Positions 10,606 through 30,763 of a stretch of DNA of 30,763 nucleotides are shown here, in pieces. Under the pieces are notes generated by a model. The model ran no database searches and was not told where the DNA came from. It saw only the letters and a list, made by a program, of their open reading frames with translations. The stretch's first letter is position 1. Each line of letters begins with the position of its first letter. The stretch is from a virus (lineage: Duplodnaviria; Heunggongvirae; Uroviricota; Caudoviricetes). Location: the IMG/VR virus record IMGVR_UViG_2718218434_000001; one strand, 5' to 3'. Position numbers and translations under genes: made by a program.

Positions 10606-11279
10606 GTCGTCACCTTGATGATTTGTTAATGCGGGGGCAACATTAATAAATGTACTTGAGACCGCAATTTGTCGATGGAGCCAACATTTATAACTATGTG
10701 CTTCTACCCTCTGAATTTTTACATGTGAATTGCTAGCTTGAATAGCTCTATCATTATATACGTGGCACTAAATTATGGCTGTTTTTCGCTCAAAGCGGAC
10801 TAGAAGGTTAGCTTGTGTCGGACTTTGCGTATTAAAAGAAGTGCTGGTGGTGACTAGTGGTTGTGCCCCATTTCCACAGAAAAAATCAGAGAAACTATAC
10901 CCAATAGTTGTATTGAATCACTGACGAGACAGCCTCATATTCATCAGGACTGGTCTACGTCCAATACAGGAGGTTGTGGTGCTGGTTCTCAAATGTGCGC
11001 TGGCTATTACGGCTGTAATGGCGATTTATTGTCTTGCTATTGTTCTTATGGATCGCCTTTCTGACTGATTTCATATTGGCGAGGTAACGGTAGTTAAGTA
11101 GAATGGCTGCGGGTGCTTGAGGCTATCTGCCTCGGGCATGAACACCAAAGGCAGATAGAGAAAAGCCCCAGTTAACATTACGCGTCCTGCAAGACGCTTA
11201 ACATTAATCTGAGGCCAATTTCATGCTAGACACATGTAGGTTAGCCTCTTACGTGCCGAAAGGCAAGGAGAAGCAGGCT

Positions 11280-19188: not shown

Positions 19189-20216
<1,028 letters not shown>

Positions 20217-21933: not shown

Positions 21934-22140
21934 ATGCATAAAGATCAATACACTGATGCCCCCTCCCAGGAGCAGGTTCGTGTAAAAACTATGCTTAATA
22001 GCACCATTTCGATGGGTTACCCGGATGTTGTAATTGCATGTATAGAACATCAAGTGTCTCTGGAAGCATTCAGGGCAATTGAGGCCGCGTTAGTAAAGCA
22101 CGATAAGAATACGAAGGATTATTCCCTGGTGGTTGACTGA
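21934..22140 (+). CDS. Hypothetical small protein (68 aa)
   Basis: ATG with GGAG RBS 6 nt upstream; no family recognised. Confidence 0.4.
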
Positions 22141-22479
22141 TCACCATAACTGCTAACCATTCTGACCATTTCACAAGTGACAGAGTCAATATCGTATTCT
22201 GTCACTGTCAGGCTAATACAGCAATGCAATTCAACTACAGCAATGCCTCGTATTTAGGTGAATTTACAATATCGTCCAGTTCGGATGCCGGCTGCATTTC
22301 TGAAGATAAGGCATTTCGGTTCTCGTATTTTCCCCTCATGCTCGTCAGTCCTGCGCGTAGTAAGAAACAGGACACTCACACTAATTTGTGTGGGCATGCT
22401 GTGATGTCCTTCTGAATTATCCCCATGCCATTATGTAAAGCTCTGTTACAGATGCTCGTCACGGTTGTCAGGCTGTCGG

Positions 22480-22570
22480 GTCCTCCCAGTGGGGGGCCCT
22501 GCCACGGGGCGGGAGCGTCGCGGAAAAAGGCTAGTTTTTGAAATTTTATTCGTCATCACCACTACTGTAA
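22480..22570. other. Candidate cos site (cosN-like ACGGGGCGGGAGCGTCGCGG followed by AT-rich cosB-like region) upstream of Nu1
   Basis: Sequence around 22504-22523 resembles recalled lambda cosN (ACGGGGCGGCGACCTCGCGG) and downstream TGAAATTTTAT; lies about 170 bp upstream of the Nu1-like gene. Confidence 0.5.
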
Positions 22571-22692
22571 TTGATTGATATTACAGTTGTTTTATTTTTA
22601 TGGTGTCGATTCTGATTGTTTTTTGTTCATCACTAACACCGTTTGCCTAAAGTTGTTCGCAAGATGCATGTTTAAAACATTCTGGAGCGGGT

Positions 22693-23187
22693 ATGGATCG
22701 AGAGTTAAAAAATCTGACGCTGAATATCAGTCAACTGGCGGCATTGTCAGGTGTACATCGCCAGACTGCTGCGGCAAGGCTGCAAAATCTACCCGTTGCA
22801 GGGGGGCATGAAAGCAACCTCAAGCTTTATCGGGTGGTTGATATTGTGTCGGCATTTCTGGCATTACCACCGCCGGTTGCAGAAGGCGAAATGGACGCGC
22901 ATGAGCGCAAAGCCTGGTATCAGTCTGAACGTGAGCGTCTTAAGTTCGAACAGGAAACGGCACAACTCATTCCGGCCAGTGATGTCAGACGGGAGTTTGC
23001 CATCTGGGCAAAAGCGGTCGTGCAGGTGCTGGAGACATTACCGGATATTCTTGAACGTGACTGCGGTCTGCAGCCTGCCGCTGTGAGCCGTGTTCAGTCC
23101 ATTATTGATGATCTGCGCGATCAGATAGCCCTGCGGGTGACTGAAGCAGGTGCGGATGATGAGGAGGAATTACAGCAGGAGGAGTAA
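22693..23187 (+). CDS. nohA: Terminase small subunit (Nu1/NohA-like) with N-terminal HTH
   Basis: Translation MDRELKNLTLNISQLAALSGVHRQTAAARLQ...; GGAG RBS; acidic C-terminus. Confidence 0.7.
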   Translation: MDRELKNLTLNISQLAALSGVHRQTAAARLQNLPVAGGHESNLKLYRVVDIVSAFLALPPPVAEGEMDAHERKAWYQSERERLKFEQETAQLIPASDVRREFAIWAKAVVQVLETLPDILERDCGLQPAAVSRVQSIIDDLRDQIALRVTEAGADDEEELQQEE

Positions 23188-23618
23188 TGCTGAATCAGGA
23201 AACCGCAAAGGCAGCACGAACCGATTCAGGTTATATCCTTCGCGCACCGAGACGAATGCGGGTTGCTGATGCCGTTGCTCAGTATATGCGGGTGCGTAAC
23301 CGCTGGTTCAGCGTGATGGCGGGGCCGTCTGTGCGCGTGAATGAATGGTTCAGCGCGTATGCGATGGCGGGTATGGCTTACAGCCGTGTGTCGACCTTCT
23401 CCGAGGATTATCTCCGCGTAACTGACAACAAGGGGAAAACGCACGATGTGCTGACCGGAAGTGATGACGGTCGCCACAGCAACACGTCTCTGGCGTGGGG
23501 GGCTGGCGTGCAGTTTAACCCGACCGAATCCGTGGCCATTGACCTTGCTTATGAAGGTTCCGGCAGTGGTGACTGGCGCACTGACGGTTTCATCGTGGGT
23601 GTCGGTTATAAATTCTGA
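23187..23618 (+). pseudogene. Lom/Ail-family outer-membrane protein remnant (C-terminal ~110 aa fused to unrelated N-terminal ~25 aa); deletion junction
   Basis: C-terminus ...SVAIDLAYEGSGSGDWRTDGFIVGVGYKF matches recalled lambda Lom end; no signal peptide; start overlaps Nu1 stop (TAATG). Confidence 0.6.
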
Positions 23619-23644
23619 TTAGCCAGGTAACACAGTGTTATGAC

Positions 23645-23671
23645 AGCCCGCCGGTTCAGGCGGGCTTTTTT
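23645..23671 (+). terminator. Rho-independent terminator (AGCCCGCC-GGTTCA-GGCGGGCT + T6)
   Basis: Perfect 8-bp stem plus T-run immediately upstream of the tail-fibre RBS. Confidence 0.7.
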
Positions 23672-23682
23672 GTGGAGTGGAT

Positions 23683-26031
23683 ATGGCAGCAGTAAAAATC
23701 TCAGGTGTGCTGAAAGATGGTGCGGGAAAACCAATACAGAACTGCACTATTCAACTGAAGGCAAAGCGTAACAGCACCACGGTACTGGTGAACACGGTGG
23801 CCTCTGAAAATCCGGATGAAGCCGGGCGTTACAGCATGGATGTTGAGCATGGCCAGTACAGCGTCACCCTGCTGGTTGAAGGTTTTCCGCCTTCACATGC
23901 CGGAACCATTACCGTCTATGAAGGTTCCAGACCAGGTACGCTGAATGATTTTCTCGGTGCCATGACGGAAGATGATGTCATGCCGGAGGCATTGCGTCGT
24001 TTTGAGGCAATGGTGGAAGAAGCGGCACGCAACGCCGAAGCCGCCTCTCAGAGCGCAGCGGCGGCAAAGAAATCCGAAACTGCAGCGGCATCATCGAAGA
24101 ACGCGGCGAAAACCTCAGAAACGAATGCAGCTAACAGCGCACAGGCGGCAGCGTCCTCGCAGACTGCATCGGCAAACTCCGCGACAGCAGCCAAAAAATC
24201 AGAAACCAACGCGAAAAACAGCGAGACAGCCGCAAAGACGAGCGAAACCAACGCAAAGTCCAGCCAGACGGCAGCGAAAACCAGCGAAACGAATGCCAAA
24301 GCCAGTGAAACTGCGGCGAAAAATAGCCAGAATGCAGCAGCCGAAAGCGAGAGCGCGGCAGCCGGTTCTGCGACTGCAGCAGCTGGATCAGCAACTGCTG
24401 CGGCTAACAGCCAGAAAGCAGCGAAGACGAGCGAAACTAACGCAAAGTCCAGCCAGACGGCAGCGAAGACCAGCGAAACAAATGCCAAAGCCAGCGAAAC
24501 TGCGGCGAAAAGCAGTCAGGATGCAGCAGCCGAAAGCGAGAGTGCTGCAGCTGGTTCTGCAAGTGCGGCGGCTGCTTCTGCCACTGCATCAGCAAACAGT
24601 CAAAAAGCTGCAAAAACCAGTGAAACCAATGCAAAGACAAGCGAGACTGCAGCGGCGAACTCGGCGCAAGCATCGGCAGCAAGCCAGACAGCAGCTAAAG
24701 CAAGTGAGGATGCAGCCAGAGAGTATGCAAGCCAGGCAGCAGAGCCGTATAAATATGTCTTACAGCCACTGCCTGATGTGTGGATACCGTTTAACGATTC
24801 ACTGGATATGCTTGCTGGCTTTTCGCCTGGTTATAAGCAAATAACCGTAGGTGATGATGTTATTAAAATGCCATCCGATAAGGTTGTTAGCTTCAAACGC
24901 GCATCAGGTGCAACATACATTAATAAATCAGGTGTATTAACCGTTGCTGAAGTTGACGAACCGCGATTTGAACGAGAAGGTTTGCTGATTGAAGGACAGA
25001 GAACAAACTATTTCAGAAATTCAAATACACCAGAAGCATGGAATAACACGGGTAGTGTGTCTGTTGAGTCGTTCGACAGTGATAAGGGGTTTAACTATGG
25101 AAGGATAACTGTTATTAATGAAAATCCGACAGCACAAGGATATCAGGCAATTGCTGTAAACACGAATGATGCTTACACCTGCCCGGCAGGTTCTTATACG
25201 ACGATATCGTGTCTGACGAAAAGTGATAATTCCCGGTGTCGTGCAAGGTTCGGAAAAATGTCTGATAATGGTGCGTTTGTTTTTCATTCAGATGCAGTTC
25301 TGGATCCTGTTACGGGAAATGTTGTTCATGGAAATAATGTGACGGTGACGGCAGAAAGAGTCGGTGAATGGTGGTTGTTTACCGCCACTCTTTTTGCAGA
25401 TGCGGAAATGATAATCAGCTCAAGATTTGAAATCCTGGCGATGCCTGGAATCAGTATTATCCCCAATGGCTCTACGTTAGATATTGCGATGCCTCAGGCG
25501 GAGATTGGGTCGTACAGGACGTCATTTATCATTACTGAAGGGGCTCCTGGCACTCGCTCCAGCGACATGGTGACAATACCTGTAAGAAACAATATTCACC
25601 GATTACCATTCAGTGCTCTTGTTGAAGTTAATAAAAACTGGGATATCCCTCCCAGCAAATCACCATTAATCTTTAATGTTAAAGATTATCAGGAAAATGG
25701 TCTGTTCACGCATGGATTCCGTGGTAATAATTTCTCTGATGCCGGTTCTCCTTTTATTTCTATGGGAGGGTGTAATAAATATGTGGCAACAACCCAGAGG
25801 AAAATCATTTCAGGCTTCCGTTGTGGCGCTGATGGAGATGTTCAGGCCGTATGTAATGGTGAATTATCTGTTGCGGCAAAAACAACATGGACTTCAATTG
25901 TTCCACGGGCAGTATTGCGAATTGGAGGGCAGGGCACTAATGGGGAGTATCATCTTTTTGGTCATATCCGTAATCTGCGTATCTGGCATAAAGAATTAAC
26001 TGATGCGCAAATGGGGGAGAGTATTAAATGA
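23683..26031 (+). CDS. Side tail fibre protein (Stf): conserved lambdoid N-terminus, Ala/Ser/Thr-rich repeat shaft, divergent C-terminal domain
   Basis: N-terminus MAAVKISGVLKDGAGKPIQNCTIQLKAKRNSTT... matches recalled Stf N-terminal domain; central AAKTSETNAK repeats; GGAG RBS. Confidence 0.85.
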   Translation: MAAVKISGVLKDGAGKPIQNCTIQLKAKRNSTTVLVNTVASENPDEAGRYSMDVEHGQYSVTLLVEGFPPSHAGTITVYEGSRPGTLNDFLGAMTEDDVMPEALRRFEAMVEEAARNAEAASQSAAAAKKSETAAASSKNAAKTSETNAANSAQAAASSQTASANSATAAKKSETNAKNSETAAKTSETNAKSSQTAAKTSETNAKASETAAKNSQNAAAESESAAAGSATAAAGSATAAANSQKAAKTSETNAKSSQTAAKTSETNAKASETAAKSSQDAAAESESAAAGSASAAAASATASANSQKAAKTSETNAKTSETAAANSAQASAASQTAAKASEDAAREYASQAAEPYKYVLQPLPDVWIPFNDSLDMLAGFSPGYKQITVGDDVIKMPSDKVVSFKRASGATYINKSGVLTVAEVDEPRFEREGLLIEGQRTNYFRNSNTPEAWNNTGSVSVESFDSDKGFNYGRITVINENPTAQGYQAIAVNTNDAYTCPAGSYTTISCLTKSDNSRCRARFGKMSDNGAFVFHSDAVLDPVTGNVVHGNNVTVTAERVGEWWLFTATLFADAEMIISSRFEILAMPGISIIPNGSTLDIAMPQAEIGSYRTSFIITEGAPGTRSSDMVTIPVRNNIHRLPFSALVEVNKNWDIPPSKSPLIFNVKDYQENGLFTHGFRGNNFSDAGSPFISMGGCNKYVATTQRKIISGFRCGADGDVQAVCNGELSVAAKTTWTSIVPRAVLRIGGQGTNGEYHLFGHIRNLRIWHKELTDAQMGESIK
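24231..24606 (+). repeat. Near-perfect tandem duplication (2 x ~186 bp) inside stf shaft region
   Basis: Nucleotide units about 24231-24417 and 24418-24606 differ at only a few positions; encodes a duplicated 62-aa Ala/Ser/Thr-rich segment. Confidence 0.7.
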
Positions 26032-26309
26032 AAGATTTAACACTCAAATTTGCAGACAGGGCCGACTTTTCGGCCTTTATGGAGAGTATTGGCTATTATG
26101 ATGACGAGTCGATGCAGGATGATATTCTTATTGACGTGATAGGTAACGTGTACAAAGAAACCGGAGAACTGACTGAAGATGGCGAACCGGTATGTGTTAA
26201 GGAAGACGGATATTTTGTAAACGTGCGCATCATTAATGATGTAAAAAAATCGTCAATATTCGATAAATACGCGGTTGTTGTTGAGCATCAACTTCGTGGC
26301 TGGATGTGA
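26028..26309 (+). CDS. Hypothetical acidic protein (93 aa) downstream of stf
   Basis: Strong RBS (GGGGGAGAG), start overlaps stf stop; no family recognised. Confidence 0.5.
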   Translation: MKDLTLKFADRADFSAFMESIGYYDDESMQDDILIDVIGNVYKETGELTEDGEPVCVKEDGYFVNVRIINDVKKSSIFDKYAVVVEHQLRGWM

Positions 26310-26318
26310 GGGAGACAA

Positions 26319-27023
26319 ATGGCTACATCGACAGTAATTCCAGGAGATATCACCACGCTAAAGGGAGATGTCAGTAAAACTAAGGAAGATATTTCCTCAA
26401 TTAACGGAAAAGTATCAACGCTTCAGACTGATATGACCAGTGCAAAGCAGGATATCAGCACCAGATACACAAAAACTGAAGTTGATAATAAGCTGAAAAA
26501 CAAACTGGAAGTGAACGATCTGGAAAGCGGTCGTTATGGTGGAGATTTTTACCCGTTGACTGGCCGTGAAGCGTTTTATATGTGGGGATTGGGCACGACT
26601 ACAGCGGCGGCAAACCTTTATCTTAATCCTGACCCTGCAATTTCGTCTGTACTGCGGTCAACATCGTCTATTCGCTATAAACATTCAGTAGAGACGATAG
26701 ATTCAGAGCACGCCGATCTCATTTTCAGGATGCGCCCTGTGTGGTACAGGTCGCAATGCGAAAATGACAGGCGTGACTGGGGATTCTACGGATTGATTGC
26801 CGAGGAAGTAGGAGAAATTGCCCCTCAGTTTGTACACTGGCGACCAGCTAACGAAGATGATGCTCCTGAAGCTATTTCCAGCAATGGCCTTGTTGCCGAA
26901 GGTGTAATGTACGAACGTCTGGTTGTTCCACTGATTCACCATATCCAGAAACTGACTGAAAGAGTTGATGAACTTGAGTCAGAATTAAAGTTGTTATTAA
27001 CTTCCCGAAGCGATATTAGATAA
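26319..27023 (+). CDS. Tail-fibre-tip-like protein (234 aa) with C-terminal intramolecular-chaperone-like domain
   Basis: N-terminal coiled-coil-like region; C-terminal segment (DWGFYGLIAEEVGEIAPQFV...MYERLVVPLIHHIQKLTERVDELE) resembles chaperone domains of tail fibres/tailspikes; GAGGGAGA RBS. Confidence 0.5.
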   Translation: MATSTVIPGDITTLKGDVSKTKEDISSINGKVSTLQTDMTSAKQDISTRYTKTEVDNKLKNKLEVNDLESGRYGGDFYPLTGREAFYMWGLGTTTAAANLYLNPDPAISSVLRSTSSIRYKHSVETIDSEHADLIFRMRPVWYRSQCENDRRDWGFYGLIAEEVGEIAPQFVHWRPANEDDAPEAISSNGLVAEGVMYERLVVPLIHHIQKLTERVDELESELKLLLTSRSDIR

Positions 27024-27033
27024 AGGAGGAGTA

Positions 27034-27327
27034 ATGGATATAACACCTTTTCTTCATGCGCTTTGTGCTGTGGCTGCGCAGACACTGGTTGGTCTTTTTA
27101 CCGGAAACTGGGCTTATGGGGCGATAGCTGGTTGTACGTTCTTCATTGCGCGTGAACACACCCAGGCAGAATATCGCTGGATTGAAATGTTCGGGCATGG
27201 CAAGCGGATTAACATGCCGTGGTGGGGCGGTTTTGATCCGCGTGTTTGGGATGTGGCAAGCCTGATGGATTTTGCTGTGCCGGTGGTGGCGTGTCTGCTG
27301 ATCTGGCTGTTGGTTAATCGTGGGTGA
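27034..27327 (+). CDS. Small membrane protein (97 aa, two predicted TM segments)
   Basis: Strong AAGGAGGA RBS; hydrophobic N- and C-terminal segments; no family recognised. Confidence 0.5.
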   Translation: MDITPFLHALCAVAAQTLVGLFTGNWAYGAIAGCTFFIAREHTQAEYRWIEMFGHGKRINMPWWGGFDPRVWDVASLMDFAVPVVACLLIWLLVNRG

Positions 27328-27337
27328 AAAAAGGTGA

Positions 27338-27457
27338 GCTGTATATGCAACGGAGGAAGAAACCCCGTTGCTGGAAGCCAGGAAAAAGTATCGGGTGTTG
27401 CTGAACCGTGTTGATACGTCAACTGCACAGGATATTGAATGGCCAGCACTGCCGTAG
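27338..27457 (+). pseudogene. Tail fibre assembly protein (Tfa) 3' remnant, last ~39 codons, no start codon
   Basis: Open frame ending ...[33 protein letters not shown], the conserved Tfa C-terminus; in-frame stop at 27335-27337 immediately upstream. Confidence 0.55.
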
Positions 27458-27554
27458 GGTAAAACATATAAATTCTATAATTAGATGTATCTTTCCATTT
27501 ACGGCAAGGAAGGGGGCTTGGAAGACGTAAAGCATCTCACACCGAGATTATTTT

Positions 27555-28145
27555 TTATATGTCAGGTGTCTGAAGTTTTGCTTTGGCTCTTAAAATGGTT
27601 TGCCGCGAGGTTTTGAATTCCCGGGCAATGGCACTTATACTTACACCTGACTTAATCCGTTCGAATACCACCTGTTTCTGTTCTTCATTTAACACAGGTG
27701 GTCGACCAAAACGTTTCCCTGCGCCCCGGGCTCTTACTATCCCGGAATGAGTGCGTTCAAGTAAAAGGTCTCGTTCAAATTCAGCGACTGCTGAAATTAC
27801 TTGCATCATCATTTTTCCTGTTGGACTGGTCAGGTCAATGCCCCCCAATGCTAAGCAATGCACTCTGATACCTGTTTCGGTCAGTTGTTCCACTGTTTTC
27901 CTGATATCCATTGCATTACAACCAAGGCGATCCAATTTTGTCACAATCAATTGATCACCACATTTCAGGCGAGCAAGCAACCGGTTAAAACCAGGACGCT
28001 CACTGGTTGCTGCTGAGCCGCTAATGTGTTCTTCGATTATTTGCTGAGGTTTGATTTTAAAACCTGCACTTTCGATTTCCCGGCGTTGATTTTCGGTGGT
28101 CTGATCCAGCGTTGATATCCGACAGTAAGCAAAAATTCGAGACAT
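27555..28145 (-). CDS. pinQ: Serine recombinase / DNA invertase family protein (PinQ/PinR-like, 196 aa)
   Basis: N-terminal catalytic motif YCRISTLDQ and C-terminal HTH; position next to ydfK as in Qin/Rac. Confidence 0.8.
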
Positions 28146-28460
28146 AGTGAGACTCTATACGAAATTGGTGTTCATATCATAATGCATCTCAGAAAATAAT
28201 TTTGATTATTTTTGTGCATATTTGTATGTACACGTTCGAAAATAAACGAATGCGTATGCAACCCCGTAATTTTGGTGAGACCCAAAATCGATTTTGTGAA
28301 AAATGGCTTTAACTCGGTTTGTTTTTCGAGTTCCAGGCGGACTCAAGGAAGAAGAATAGTGTTGCGTGTTATTTTAACCAGATTTCAAGTTGTTTGGTCG
28401 TGGAAAAGTGGAGCAAAATGTTGTTAAAGTGGAAAATGATAAAAAAGTAAGTTAATTATA

Positions 28461-28694
28461 TTACATTTTACCATTTAAATTTTGGTTGTCTTTAAGAACT
28501 GATATCGCTGTTTGTAATAATTCTTTGTTATCCAGCCATGATTTTTTCTTTATGTTTCCTTCAATGTAATCAAGCAATGTTCTGGTATTGATAGGTCTTC
28601 CCTGTTTTGCTACTTCCACTACAGCATCCCCTAGGATAATTCTTACTTCAGGAAGCTGCGCAGGGAACCACTTTAGGGTGTCTTTTGATTTCAT
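28461..28694 (-). CDS. ydfK: Cold-shock-induced small protein YdfK/YnaE family (77 aa)
   Basis: Translation from internal ATG MKSKDTLKWFPAQLPEVRIILGDAVVEVAKQGRPINTR... matches recalled YdfK/YnaE; AAGGA RBS. Confidence 0.75.
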   Translation of the reverse strand: MKSKDTLKWFPAQLPEVRIILGDAVVEVAKQGRPINTRTLLDYIEGNIKKKSWLDNKELLQTAISVLKDNQNLNGKM

Positions 28695-29479
28695 GAAGAT
28701 ATTCCTTAAAATATTATTGATTTTCATTGCGATATTGTATGTCTGATTCAGGATATGTTGACTTATACATCGGTTTTGTCTGGGTTATTGGATATGCCAA
28801 TCCCTAATTTTATTAGGGCATGACTAAAAATGCTGAATATGATAAGGAGAGAAGTGATTATCAGTATGCTGTTCATATAGCCTCGAATTAGTAATGTGTT
28901 ATATATGATATAGTTGACGATTTTTATCCTGGGTGTTCTTAAAGTTCGTAGATAAACATTGTCGTTTCAGGTATACAGGAATGCTAACAGGTGGCAGCAA
29001 AAATCAGGCGGTTTATGGCGCAAGCTGAAGCGGCAACTGCAAACTATCTTATGCAGAGACTCTACACGGATTGGGTTTAAAAGTATACATAGATAACAGT
29101 TTTTATCTGAAGAAGAAAAATATCAAGGTGATATAGCCTATATGCCTTTGATGCGGAGGAATGAATGTGATGGGAGTGATGTATCTGAATAGTTGAAAAA
29201 CCGCAGACACGCCTTATGCAAGAACGTGCTGCGGTTGGCTGGTAAATTTTTCGATAGTGTGTGTATTGAATGATTTCCAGCCGTTCTTGATTTTACGCAT
29301 AAATCCATGAAAAAACCACTTATCTGTTGGGGAGTTTTTTTGGGGCATATATGGGACAGAAATAGGCCCCAGATAGACACTGAGATCGAACTCAGGATGC
29401 TTTTTAAAAAATGCAACTATCTGAAAAAACCTAGAAAACGCCAAGGGAACCACAGGATGGGAAAAAACACCTGTGAATT

Positions 29480-30763
29480 ATGGATTTCCAGTTATATTCG
29501 CTCGGCGCAGCGTTAGTGTTTCATGAAATATTTTTTCCTGAATCATCAACGGCAATGGCGTTAATTTTGGCAATGGGAACCTACGGTGCAGGTTATGTGG
29601 CGCGTATTGTCGGAGCATTTATTTTCGGCAAAATGGGCGACAGAATAGGGCGTAAAAAAGTGCTCTTTATTACCATCACCATGATGGGGATCTGTACCAC
29701 CTTAATTGGTGTGTTACCGACCTATGCACAGATTGGTGTTTTTGCCCCCATCTTGCTGGTGACGCTGCGTATTATTCAGGGGTTGGATGCAGGTGCGGAA
29801 ATTTCCGGTGCCGGTACGATGCTGGCGGAATATGCACCAAAAGGTAAGCGCGGAATTATCTCCTCATTTGTAGCTATGGGAACTAACTGCGGAACCTTGA
29901 GCGCAACGGCAATCTGGGCCTTTATGTTCTTCATTCTCAGTAAAGAGGAACTGCTGGCGTGGGGATGGCGTATACCGTTCCTGGCGAGCGTTGTCGTGAT
30001 GGTCTTTGCTATCTGGTTACGTATGAATCTGAAAGAAAGCCCGGTCTTTGAGAAGGTTAATGACAGCAACCAACCCACAGCAAAACCTGCACCTGCTGGT
30101 AGCATGTTCCAGAGCAAATCCTTCTGGCTGGCAACAGGGCTGCGTTTTGGTCAGGCGGGTAACTCCGGGTTAATTCAGACTTTCCTTGCAGGCTATTTAG
30201 TGCAGACGTTATTGTTTAACAAAGCAATTCCAACAGATGCATTGATGATTAGTTCGATTCTCGGCTTTATGACCATTCCGTTCCTTGGTTGGTTATCCGA
30301 TAAAATTGGTCGCCGGATCCCGTATATTATTATGAATACCTCCGCGATTGTGCTGGCATGGCCAATGCTTTCTATCATTGTAGATAAAAGCTATGCCCCG
30401 AGCACCATTATGGTTGCACTGATTGTGATTCATAACTGTGCGGTGCTGGGATTATTTGCTCTGGAAAACATTACCATGGCAGAAATGTTCGGCTGTAAAA
30501 ACCGCTTTACCCGGATGGCTATTTCTAAAGAAATTGGTGGTCTTATCGCTTCCGGTTTTGGTCCTATCCTGGCGGGTATTTTCTGCACCATGACGGAATC
30601 CTGGTATCCGATCGCCATTATGATCATGGCATATTCAGTGATTGGTTTAATCTCTGCGCTGAAAATGCCAGAGGTGAAAGACCGTGATTTAAGTGCGCTG
30701 GAAGACGCTGCGGAAGATCAACCGCGTGTTGTAAGAGCTGCGCAACCTTCCAGAAGTCTGTAA
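29480..30763 (+). CDS. ydfJ: MFS transporter (metabolite:H+ symporter family, YdfJ-like), apparently lacking the N-terminal part of TM1
   Basis: 12-TM MFS-like sequence with GDRIGRK motif; ORF begins inside what should be TM1, consistent with prophage integration in the 5' end of the gene. Confidence 0.8.
   Translation: MDFQLYSLGAALVFHEIFFPESSTAMALILAMGTYGAGYVARIVGAFIFGKMGDRIGRKKVLFITITMMGICTTLIGVLPTYAQIGVFAPILLVTLRIIQGLDAGAEISGAGTMLAEYAPKGKRGIISSFVAMGTNCGTLSATAIWAFMFFILSKEELLAWGWRIPFLASVVVMVFAIWLRMNLKESPVFEKVNDSNQPTAKPAPAGSMFQSKSFWLATGLRFGQAGNSGLIQTFLAGYLVQTLLFNKAIPTDALMISSILGFMTIPFLGWLSDKIGRRIPYIIMNTSAIVLAWPMLSIIVDKSYAPSTIMVALIVIHNCAVLGLFALENITMAEMFGCKNRFTRMAISKEIGGLIASGFGPILAGIFCTMTESWYPIAIMIMAYSVIGLISALKMPEVKDRDLSALEDAAEDQPRVVRAAQPSRSL

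Follow-up and report, generated by a model that had tools for sequence, protein, structure and literature searches.

Does the tail fiber region of this prophage, in which an stf gene is followed by three further genes and a start-less end of tfa, represent a damaged stf-tfa module or an intact unit of another kind? A sequence-only reading had favored the replacement of the distal stf part and of tfa by a foreign cassette. The region resides in a DNA stretch of 30,763 nt (the window, i.e., the whole sequence analyzed) containing a Qin-type prophage, which is clearly degraded: its head and tail genes are gone, and a fusion joins a Nu1-like gene to the 3′ part of lom. Since tail genes are lacking, the prophage has no virion of its own that the module could serve. 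Taken as a whole, the region is best explained as an intact copy of a widespread alternative side-tail-fiber module of lambdoid coliphages, an interpretation we consider probable. It comprises the following features:

23683-26031, + strand: stf, intact open reading frame (782 aa from ATG 23683, 784 aa from the alternative GTG 23677)
23689-24078, + strand: lambda-type N-terminal domain of Stf (residues 5-134; PF08400), the presumed attachment end
24079-24738, + strand: Ala/Ser-rich repeat shaft of Stf (approximately residues 135-354) with internal direct repeats; similarity to lambda Stf stops within it, at residue 275
24739-25026, + strand: conserved linker of the distal module (Stf residues 355-450, approximately), proposed left homology arm for exchange, with a GC drop
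25006-25518, + strand: hypervariable lectin-like beta-sandwich (Stf residues 444-614), probable first receptor-binding domain
25576-26028, + strand: second, LamG-like beta-sandwich (Stf residues 634-784), the last ~35 residues of which are conserved
26028-26309, + strand: 93-aa acidic protein (pI 4.3; phrog_1361), companion of this fiber type
26319-27023, + strand: 234-aa short fiber with putative docking N-terminus (residues 1-32), coiled coil, small tip and chaperone domain from residue 116
26664-27020, + strand: intramolecular chaperone domain (Peptidase_S74-type) of the 234-aa protein; the Pfam match and the motif SSIRYK both start at residue 116
27034-27327, + strand: 97-aa three-helix membrane protein (phrog_1443), accessory gene behind receptor-binding genes
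27346-27457, + strand: tfa 3′ remnant (last 36 codons and stop, no start codon), recombination scar and probable right homology arm
27555-28145, - strand: pinQ-type serine recombinase (Resolvase, E=2.5e-36), convergent with the module; context only

Composition of the side tail fiber protein

The Stf protein, which is 100% identical to the products of annotated genes in other E. coli genomes, matched phrog_1419 ("tail protein") over its whole length. Its N-terminus was assigned to the lambda-type domain PF08400 with an E-value of 1.9e-66, and over 23491-24035, an interval that also takes in the last part of lom, the DNA shows 83% identity with lambda. Similarity to lambda Stf itself is restricted to residues 5-275 (59% identity), in agreement with the earlier description of a lambdoid N-terminus and shaft leading into a divergent end. 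The direct repeats of the shaft (24217-24527 versus 24406-24716) share approximately 79% identity. Near 24750-24800 the GC content decreases from ~0.55 to ~0.42, as expected for a mosaic junction.

The C-terminal part of Stf, for which a profile analysis had been suggested, revealed a match to the RcGTA head spike fiber (PDB 6tb9, E=4.7e-15) and, at residues 437-628, to the domain NF048003. More than 2600 protein clusters are homologous to this distal domain, among them lateral tail fibers of virulent phages. Stf is a chimera, in which a lambda-type anchor and shaft are joined at about residue 355 to a non-lambda distal unit that is common to the lateral tail fibers of T1-like, 9g-like and T5-like virulent phages. 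In this unit, a conserved linker leads into a hypervariable lectin-like beta-sandwich, for which the RcGTA head spike fiber is a homologue; a second beta-sandwich, conserved at its end, follows. Identities of the linker amount to 70-82% in Tritos, PhiR49_1 and ev243 and to 60-82% in the virulent phage ESCO3, while the flanking sequences diverge.

Proteins encoded downstream of stf

A homologue of the 93-aa protein invariably comes after the distal Stf unit; in T1-like and 9g-like phages the two genes are adjacent. In the window, the ATG of the 93-aa gene overlaps the stf stop codon. Homologues of this protein were found in 183 phage records, and a lateral tail fiber gene adjoined in every record examined. 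Comparisons with lambda Tfa and with the PDB entries revealed nothing similar; the protein is probably an assembly factor or connector.

Often, the distal unit and the 93-aa homologue are in turn followed by a variable fiber gene keeping the same N-terminus of ~30 residues. The third gene of the window encodes a mini-fiber of 234 aa, which combines a T5-type tip with a self-cleaving chaperone domain. Its N-terminal 27-32 residues recur in the 346/351-aa fibers of Tritos and ESCO3, and also in T1-like phages. The Peptidase_S74 match covers residues 116-172 (27.1 bits at a cut-off of 22 bits), and the domain is predicted to cleave itself off. Moreover, the C-terminus resembles that of the L-shaped tail fiber (PDB 8hqz; SSIRYK compared to SGIEYK), and the protein matches the C-terminus of phrog_3299. 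The initial assignment as a fiber-tip-like protein with a chaperone-like C-terminus was confirmed.

The distal part most likely builds a branched fiber, which would attach to surface polysaccharide and do without Tfa. In this arrangement, the third protein would dock via its conserved N-terminus on the conserved end of Stf, either together with the 93-aa protein or by way of it, and the resulting branched fiber would present two receptor-binding domains to the surface polysaccharide. Published models of IrisVonRoten place the distal fiber on a proximal fiber with a galectin-like end (PMC11990801), and branched LtfA/LtfB fibers have been described for DT57C (PMC10713586). It is the absence of tfa beside such fibers that points to Tfa independence; if the fiber indeed needs no Tfa, tfa could be lost for this reason.

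Alternatively, the 234-aa protein (346-574 aa elsewhere) might act in trans, its S74 domain serving as a folding chaperone for Stf and the 93-aa protein as a second chaperone. Neither protein would then be present in the virion and the fiber would be unbranched. In mature form, the 234-aa protein would indeed retain only ~115 residues, few for a fiber that binds a receptor. In addition, the PeterMerian homologue was labeled "putative lateral tail fiber chaperone" by the BASEL annotators, several other homologues carry the label "chaperone of endosialidase", and ev243 and 4C10 manage without the third gene. However, S74 domains act on their own polypeptide, as in endosialidase and T5 pb1. Longer variants of the third gene contain fiber-tip regions homologous to the ends of long tail fibers, and the pattern of a conserved N-terminus followed by hypervariability after the first 30 residues is that of a docking segment and a receptor-binding part, respectively. 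The IrisVonRoten homologue has also been modeled as a distal fiber (PMC11990801). Action in trans is therefore unlikely, and a branched fiber is the reading we prefer.

The 97-aa membrane protein

The fourth gene, whose product had been thought to span the membrane twice, encodes a protein for which AlphaFold modeled three helices instead (residues 4-23, 26-53 and 74-96; pLDDT 92). Together with its relatives it forms a family of membrane proteins with three helices and a length of ~100 aa; in phages, the genes are located directly behind tailspike or fiber genes. An alignment of the family disclosed the invariant loop AREHTQAEYRWI..FG.GKR.NMPWWGGFD. Searches of PADLOC, Pfam, PDB and a viral structure library gave no match, nor was there any significant one to holin families. 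The gene is preceded by a perfect ribosome-binding site (AAGGAGG), and homology between phages begins only 11-12 nt ahead of its ATG; in relatives, the start often overlaps the upstream stop. No promoter was predicted by a crude consensus search, a result that is still compatible with expression from the prophage.

In 54 of 59 diverse viral contigs, of sipho-, podo- and myovirus type, a same-strand open reading frame of at least 150 aa ends just upstream of the 97-aa homologue. Forty-two of these 54 reading frames have at least 500 aa, and most of the 43 that were scanned match tail fiber or tailspike families. Because the phage genes are situated behind receptor-binding genes and have no conserved promoter of their own, their products are probably synthesized late and along with the receptor-binding protein. 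The 97-aa protein is 93-95% identical behind different Stf types and also occurs behind a P22-like tailspike. Being nearly invariant behind fibers of different specificity, it cannot be receptor-specific. Furthermore, the virulent phage ESCO3 possesses the same fiber trio without the 97-aa gene. By these comparisons the 97-aa protein is not a fiber component, and in that sense the earlier suggestion that it has no obvious role in fiber assembly and could be cargo is plausible.

Our best guess on its function, a tentative one, is an inner-membrane accessory role affecting either surface-polysaccharide assembly or secondary DNA entry. Ranking next, and already doubtful, is a lytic-cycle partner of the receptor-binding proteins, concerned with their maturation, with lysis timing, or with progeny release from polysaccharide-coated debris. 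The tight coupling to diverse tailspike and fiber genes in all three contig types would suit such a partner, as would two Salmonella loci, in which the homologue lies between two tailspike genes (L017) or directly before holin genes (L018). On the other hand, not only ESCO3 but also T1-like phages with the same trio do without the gene, the lambdoid lysis genes of the window are at another site, no match to a holin family is significant, and homologues also exist in non-phage chromosomal settings, among them positions next to housekeeping genes.

The sequence-only reading had suggested an exclusion or immunity gene. That the prophage expresses the protein for superinfection exclusion or lysogenic conversion is in our view unlikely. 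The end of a late operon next to an attachment site or cargo genes is the usual place of conversion genes, and the 97-aa homologue indeed lies between tailspike and integrase in JEP4 and adjoins sitABCD or ompT cargo in 4C10 and ev243. Its phage matches are mostly temperate phages, and virulent ESCO3 lacks it. This reading is opposed by the homology that starts at the ribosome-binding site with no conserved promoter, by the negative PADLOC result, by the chromosomal homologues outside phages and by the near invariance behind fibers of different specificity. Partial homologues were moreover found in large Aeromonas phages and in HC6, an apparently virulent phage that has the gene downstream of a probable tailspike gene.

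Origin of the tfa remnant and distribution of the module

The start-less tfa stub had been estimated to cover the last ~39 codons from 27338. A start codon is indeed missing, and the reading frame is open from 27338, right behind an in-frame TGA (27335-27337). However, alignments with K-12 tfaQ and lambda tfa both showed homology only from 27346 on, which leaves 36 codons. Downstream of this position the identity to K-12 Qin is 98.9%, in a block running through pinQ and ydfK; the lambda tfa 3′ end is 91% identical to the remnant. In identical genomes the remnant is annotated by PGAP (NCBI) as a partial tail fiber assembly pseudogene. The alignments support a recombination junction at 27345/27346, the left edge of the remnant.

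The whole module including the scar was found, with 99-100% identity, in 107 of 5426 complete E. coli genomes, and the 97-aa gene with the scar in 1729 of them. Full-length prophages at the ydfJ, sitABCD-side and appY/ompT sites harbor the module, always together with the scar, and so do the viable phages Tritos and PhiR49_1. The junction between the 97-aa gene and the scar is identical in 4C10, ev243, PhiR49_1 and Tritos. Identity profiles disclosed three or more conserved linkers flanking two hypervariable receptor-binding segments, and the 97-aa gene and scar travel independently of the fiber genes. Hence, of the proposed cassette replacement the junction inside tfa was corroborated, but neither a local event nor a single cassette. 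This distribution marks the module as a standard, circulating one and not as the product of a replacement in this genome. The remnant would be a scar dating back to a single old recombination event, the junction of which has since become fixed beside the 97-aa gene. From its distribution, the tfa 3′ end probably persists as a right-hand homology arm for the exchange of fiber cassettes among lambdoid phages, yet it could instead be a neutral hitchhiker. As a mosaic the region is nothing unusual, and what it offers as a modest lead is the 97-aa membrane protein.

It is very improbable that the module is or was part of a Pin-invertible host-range switch, as known from Mu, P1 and e14, with the remnant left over from the inverted alternative. 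A pinQ-type recombinase gene does lie 98 bp downstream in convergent orientation, and the layout is alike in Tritos. Nevertheless, the fiber genes all point in one direction, the module exists without pin at two other prophage sites, and searches revealed neither inverted repeats flanking the region nor a gix/pix-like core site (AAACCNNGGTTT-type crossover core) near the module. The degraded state of the prophage might also suggest that a truly intact stf-tfa locus lost part of tfa recently in this genome alone or was misread in sequencing or assembly, the latter an objection foreseen in the sequence-only reading, but this is refuted by the 1729 complete genomes, by the junction recurring at 99-100% identity in independent complete genomes, in phage isolates and in prophages at three sites, and by the in-frame stop right before the remnant, upstream of which the sequence is that of the 97-aa gene.

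Comparison with known systems

The lambda stf-tfa and K-12 Qin stfQ-tfaQ-pinQ loci share the position after lom and the Stf N-terminus with the region studied here. Qin additionally has the same right flank (last 112 nt of tfaQ, then pinQ, ydfK and ydfJ′; 98.9% identical). In comparison to both, the Tfa-dependent distal Stf part and ~155 tfa codons are missing and are replaced by four other coding units. The domain at Stf residues 437-628 is homologous to that of the RcGTA head spike fiber (6tb9), where it is part of a capsid spike and not of a tail fiber end.

Small envelope proteins are encoded beside receptor-binding genes in other phages as well, e.g., Llp of T5 and Cor of phi80/N15, and conversion genes reside behind the tailspike genes of epsilon15 or P22. 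The likeness of the 97-aa gene to these is only positional, a small envelope product encoded behind a receptor-binding gene. Unlike them, the 97-aa protein is uniform across receptor specificities and has chromosomal members outside phages; it shows no similarity to them in sequence or fold and no lipoprotein signal.

The same trio is present in virulent siphoviruses of the T1-like (Drexlerviridae) and 9g-like (Queuovirinae) groups (ESCO3, tunus, SLUR29, JenP1). In ESCO3, the companion protein has 92% identity with the 93-aa protein, and at the DNA level the stretch running from the end of stf through the 93-aa gene into the first part of the third gene reaches 89%. The fiber N-terminus and shaft of these virulent phages, by contrast, are only ~30% identical, and ESCO3, the one checked in detail, contains neither the 97-aa gene nor the tfa remnant.

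The same gene order also exists in the T5-like phages IrisVonRoten (gp22-gp23-gp24) and DT57C (LtfA/LtfB): a proximal fiber ending in lectin-like beta-sandwiches, a protein of ~92 aa, and a distal fiber with T5-like tip and chaperone domain. IrisVonRoten gp22 is 43% identical to Stf residues 133-783, gp23, encoded between the fiber genes gp22 and gp24, is 38% identical to the 93-aa protein, and gp24 has an N-terminal motif in common with the third gene product. For these fibers, models and genetics describe a distal fiber that is carried by the proximal one (PMC11990801, PMC10713586). At the proximal end, however, the T5-like phages have the T5 Ltf N-terminus and its LtfC collar where the module studied here has the lambda Stf anchor (PF08400). 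The third protein of this module has 234 aa instead of 574 aa, without a Gp12-like domain, and its gene is followed by the 97-aa membrane protein gene and the tfa scar.

Organization of the fiber region

All ORFs that a sequence-only reading had described in the fiber region were present. They are located on one strand and comprise the following features.

23683-26031, + strand: stf (ORF call), beginning with ATG at 23683 or alternatively with GTG at 23677
26028-26309, + strand: ORF for a 93-aa protein (pI 4.3), the ATG of which overlaps the stf stop codon
26319-27023, + strand: ORF for a 234-aa protein (third gene), with an S74 domain from residue 116
27034-27327, + strand: ORF for a 97-aa protein, with a perfect AAGGAGG ribosome-binding site
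27346-27457, + strand: tfa remnant, 19 nt after the 97-aa ORF, encoding a typical Tfa C-terminus and lacking a start codon

Near 24750-24800 the GC content changes from ~0.55 to ~0.42. Between the lom end and the stf start, a strong terminator-like hairpin was found at 23645-23666 (8 base pairs including 7 G-C pairs, and then a T run). Direct repeats of ~310 nt are located in the Stf shaft (24217-24716; offset 189 nt, ~79% identity) and could cause variation of the shaft length; related Stf proteins comprise 689 to 812 aa.

The surrounding DNA is a Qin-type prophage inserted in ydfJ, with integrase and exonuclease genes at the left end of the window and a right flank (pinQ, ydfK, truncated ydfJ) that is 98.9% identical to K-12. 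To the left of the module reside a Nu1-like gene (DUF1441, 22693-23187) and an ORF (23187-23618) that starts with 32 non-Lom residues and continues with the 111 C-terminal residues of Lom. Since full-length prophages are identical only from 23292 onward, the head and tail genes between the terminase and lom have all been deleted here. The prophage is defective. Its exact 22693-23292 junction occurred in no complete E. coli genome of the collection; at most four genomes covered 80% of it, in two pieces.

The module adjoins a pinQ-type resolvase gene (27555-28145, minus strand; E=2.5e-36). Neither suitable inverted repeats nor a crossover core of a Pin/Gin/Cin segment were detected in the region, by which a Pin-invertible segment was rejected, and the remnant lies outside any such segment. 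The recombinase is an orphan with no invertible segment nearby, a layout also seen in phage Tritos.

A widespread mosaic with an old tfa scar

The region had initially been read as a foreign cassette that replaced the end of Stf and most of tfa, with its right junction inside the ancestral tfa gene. The junction was confirmed by alignment against K-12 Qin and lambda, to which homology resumes at 27346, corresponding to the last 112 nt of tfaQ. An intact tfa directly downstream is absent: instead of a full-length ORF of ~190 aa with a start codon, only 36 startless codons are left, which retain the C-terminal motif alone and are annotated as a pseudogene. An in-frame TGA (27335-27337) resides just upstream. 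The scar had thus been recognized correctly; its interpretation as a local event did not hold, since 107 of 5426 complete E. coli genomes possess the entire 4-kb region at 99-100% identity. Full-length lambdoid prophages in these genomes contain the module at three sites, namely at ydfJ, adjacent to sitABCD and at appY/ompT, and the remnant accompanies it in every case. The lambdoid phage PhiR49_1 possesses the same four genes and the remnant, and Tritos harbors Stf, the 93-aa gene, a gene for a 346-aa fiber, the 97-aa gene, the remnant, pinR and an integrase gene. The 97-aa gene together with the remnant was detected in 1729 of the 5426 genomes. This conservation across genomes rules out a sequencing error or a local deletion as the origin of the remnant, which is one old scar fixed beside the 97-aa gene.

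Nor did the notion of a single cassette stand. The module is a nested mosaic, in which conserved linkers surround variable segments. Identity profiles against Tritos, PhiR49_1, the lambdoid phage ev243 and the virulent phage ESCO3 revealed a conserved linker at Stf residues ~355-450, a hypervariable stretch at ~450-750 (20-54%) and conserved final 34 residues (67-82%). In the third gene, only the first 27-32 residues are kept, beyond which a different protein of 234, 346, 351 or 574 aa follows; ev243 and the lambdoid phage 4C10 are devoid of this gene. The 97-aa gene, its ribosome-binding site and the remnant form a separate unit, as homology to 4C10 and ev243 starts at 27022/27023 and that to the P22-like phage JEP4 at the ATG of the 97-aa gene.

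At the two prophage sites other than ydfJ, identity stops at 27443-27444, within the last codons of the remnant, indicating that the conserved tfa end is itself a crossover point. Judging from its distribution, the remnant probably persists because most lambdoid phages have the conserved 3′-end of tfa in common, which provides a homology arm for swapping fiber cassettes. It contains no promoter, terminator or RNA family according to a consensus scan and an Rfam search over 22000-29500. In E. coli 2016-17-292 (L170), a different Stf of 1101 aa is followed by a startless tfa fragment of another length (135 nt, 10746-10880 of that locus), which suggests that independent replacements also ended inside tfa. 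The functional lambdoid phages PhiR49_1 (L004), 4C10 (L005) and ev243 (L006) carry host-type cargo right after the 97-aa gene and the remnant. In ev243 and PhiR49_1 it consists of ompT, a ybcY-like methyltransferase gene and a second tfa fragment, in 4C10 of sitABCD; the latter phage also contains IS-type mobile-element genes between the fiber gene and the companion gene.

Altogether, the module represents a frequent type of lambdoid fiber locus that has already been annotated and whose distal unit also occurs in virulent siphoviruses. For annotation this means that the arrangement should be regarded as a complete, functional type of side tail fiber, not as a damaged stf-tfa pair, and the adjacent 'partial tail fiber assembly protein' as a fixed scar. 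In phage engineering, natural splice points are offered by three conserved linkers (Stf ~355-450; the stretch from the Stf end across the 93-aa gene to the third-gene start; the 97-aa gene with the tfa remnant), at which two receptor-binding domains could be swapped on a lambda chassis.

Stf is a chimera with a lateral tail fiber end

The chimeric nature of Stf, as proposed in the sequence-only reading, was affirmed. Its N-terminal domain PF08400 is highly significant (E=1.9e-66; 222.6 bits, cut-off 26.6). BLASTP against lambda orf-401 and orf-314 gave matches only at residues 5-275 of orf-401, and no homology of the distal part to orf-314, the C-terminal half of lambda Stf. At residues 437-628 the NCBIfam domain GTA_spike_fiber (NF048003) was identified (66.8 bits, cut-off 36), and in the PDB a profile of distal Stf homologues matched the RcGTA head-spike fiber 6tb9 (E=4.7e-15). 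Strong PDB matches of this profile to lambda J and depolymerases were discarded, because they were caused by N-terminal extensions of a few aligned homologues and not by the sequence of the window.

The AlphaFold model (mean pLDDT 70.7) displays two beta-sandwiches with a lectin-like fold; Stf residues 444-614 reached pLDDT values of 83-94. The model is poor over its first 87 residues, which is to be expected when a trimeric stalk is predicted as a single chain. Homologues of the distal part were found in more than 2600 protein clusters, among them lateral tail fibers of T1-like, T5-like and other virulent coliphages. By its spike-fiber domain, its companion protein and its fold, Stf falls into the lateral tail fiber class phrog_1419/5939 of T1-, 9g- and T5-like phages.

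The 93-aa protein belongs to phrog_1361 (E=2.4e-46) and follows Stf as a companion type of ~92 aa. Homologues of the protein exist in 183 phage records, and in every record examined they were encoded beside a lateral tail fiber gene. The protein is 90-92% identical in PhiR49_1, Tritos and ESCO3 despite the differing variable core of Stf. It showed no similarity to lambda Tfa or any solved structure; a Tfa-type chaperone was dismissed, as hhalign against lambda Tfa yielded a probability of 0.2% and no PDB match was obtained. The 93-aa gene and the third-gene N-terminus have directly adjacent homologues in T1-like and 9g-like phages.

The 234-aa product of the third gene contains an intramolecular chaperone domain of the Peptidase_S74 type (residues 116-172; 27.1 bits, cut-off 22) and resembles the end of the L-shaped tail fiber protein (PDB 8hqz), with SSIRYK at residue 116 aligning with SGIEYK of 8hqz. 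It also resembles the C-terminus of the 1385-aa fiber family phrog_3299.

The 97-aa membrane protein

The 97-aa membrane family is the sole real point of interest left by the module. Roughly one third of complete E. coli genomes carry a member; the family lacks a Pfam model and occupies an unusually consistent site behind receptor-binding genes. At 90% identity it falls into 579 clusters, and at 50% identity it is represented by 427 sequences; nearly all members listed have ~65-145 aa, mostly 90-120 aa. None of the listed members with Pfam annotations carried a Pfam domain, and 25 members scanned directly gave no significant match. Two transmembrane segments had been assumed; the AlphaFold model (pLDDT 92) discloses three helices. 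From Escherichia to Aeromonas and Comamonas, members share an invariant loop, AREHTQAEYRWI..FG.GKR.NMPWWGGFD, as well as the invariant residues D2, H8, Q16 and D79. The Lys+Arg count of 5.5 in this loop versus 0.9 on the opposite side suggests that the loop faces the cytoplasm. Fold searches retrieved generic helix bundles only.

ESCO3 contains the trio of Stf distal unit, 93-aa protein and third-gene fiber without the 97-aa protein, which is 93-95% identical behind different Stf types. Therefore, it is not a fiber component. Homologues were found behind the tailspike of JEP4, behind S74-bearing fibers of P2/HP1-like prophages (Aeromonas, Leclercia), between two pectate-lyase tailspikes (Salmonella), behind an SGNH-esterase spike (E. 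coli) and, in Comamonas, after gpJ and a 72-aa gene. In 54 of 59 diverse viral contigs, a same-strand ORF of at least 150 aa ends -11 to +108 nt from the aligned start, 42 of these 54 ORFs having 500 aa or more. Among 43 upstream ORFs scanned, 27 matched a tail fiber family, 24 a tailspike family and 15 S74; pectate-lyase domains were present in six and the P22 head-binding domain in three. Homologues directly behind tailspike or fiber genes, often overlapping the upstream stop, were seen in sipho-, podo- and myovirus-type contigs (loci L007, L010, L015-L018, L171-L249). Escherichia phage HC6, which appears virulent, contains an unannotated partial homologue (L252, 3501-3659; residues 41-93, 40% identity) immediately downstream of an 859-aa ORF, where its structural genes end.

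A first neighbor survey on species-representative genomes was noisy. In these genomes, many copies adjoin housekeeping genes (ligA, pirin, DAHP synthase, PNPase); such chromosomal copies were encountered in Aeromonas and sphingomonads. Given these many homologues outside phage contexts, the family is not specific to phages.

A consensus scan detected no own promoter or terminator around the 97-aa gene, and Rfam no family in 22000-29500. As no conserved promoter precedes the gene, the protein is probably a late product, synthesized along with the receptor-binding protein. A holin was not supported: the only match among 25 family members was that of one member to Phage_holin_8 (E=0.042), the gene does not lie in a lysis cassette, and at locus L018 the homologue is followed by separate holin genes. 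In the prophage, the Rz-like lysis gene is located at 19719-20216. PADLOC defense and exclusion profiles gave no match to the 97-aa protein at E<=0.1. Searches of the literature with phage names and protein accessions yielded nothing on the module proteins, and the general exclusion literature no homologue.

The suggestion that the protein is cargo with an exclusion function is compatible with its position, by which a role in exclusion or conversion is possible. A more far-reaching reading, which we consider rather improbable, is that of an undescribed, widespread family of three-helix inner-membrane proteins (~100 aa) with an invariant, probably cytoplasmic loop rich in His/Glu/Asp, whose genes were placed repeatedly, by phages with any of the three tail types, directly behind genes of polysaccharide-targeting tailspikes or fibers and whose specific function is tied to receptor-binding proteins. 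If this were true, the protein could block an inner-membrane step of surface-glycan assembly, or DNA entry.

Proposed fiber structure and comparison with known systems

Most likely, the module builds a branched side fiber. Anchor and shaft would come from Stf, as would a first receptor-binding domain of lectin-like type. Through its own conserved N-terminus, the third protein may dock on the conserved Stf end, and the 93-aa protein is a putative connector or assembly factor. After self-cleavage of its chaperone domain, the third protein is predicted to add a second, small tip. A fiber of this kind would not need Tfa, which would have made the loss of tfa possible. The main rival to this branched fiber holds that the third protein and the 93-aa protein are merely folding helpers. 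Some annotators indeed name proteins of these types chaperones, and the mature 234-aa product would comprise only ~115 residues; even so, we judge this explanation to be unlikely.

With lambda-type Stf proteins that depend on the presence of a Tfa partner gene, the Stf studied here has the N-terminal domain PF08400 in common, whereas the lambda distal half and an intact tfa are missing. Lateral fibers of siphoviruses, both small and large ones, have been described in the earlier BASEL paper as consisting of one, two or more proteins and as probably binding O-antigen (PMC8594841), and branched LtfA/LtfB fibers were described for DT57C (PMC10713586). In the T5-like phage IrisVonRoten, gp24 has been modelled in the BASEL work as a distal fiber on a proximal fiber with a galectin-like end (PMC11990801). 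The gene order gp22, gp23, gp24 of this phage parallels the module: gp22 is 43% identical to Stf residues 133-783, gp23 is 38% identical to the 93-aa protein, and gp24 shares the N-terminal motif and the chaperone domain with the third-gene protein.
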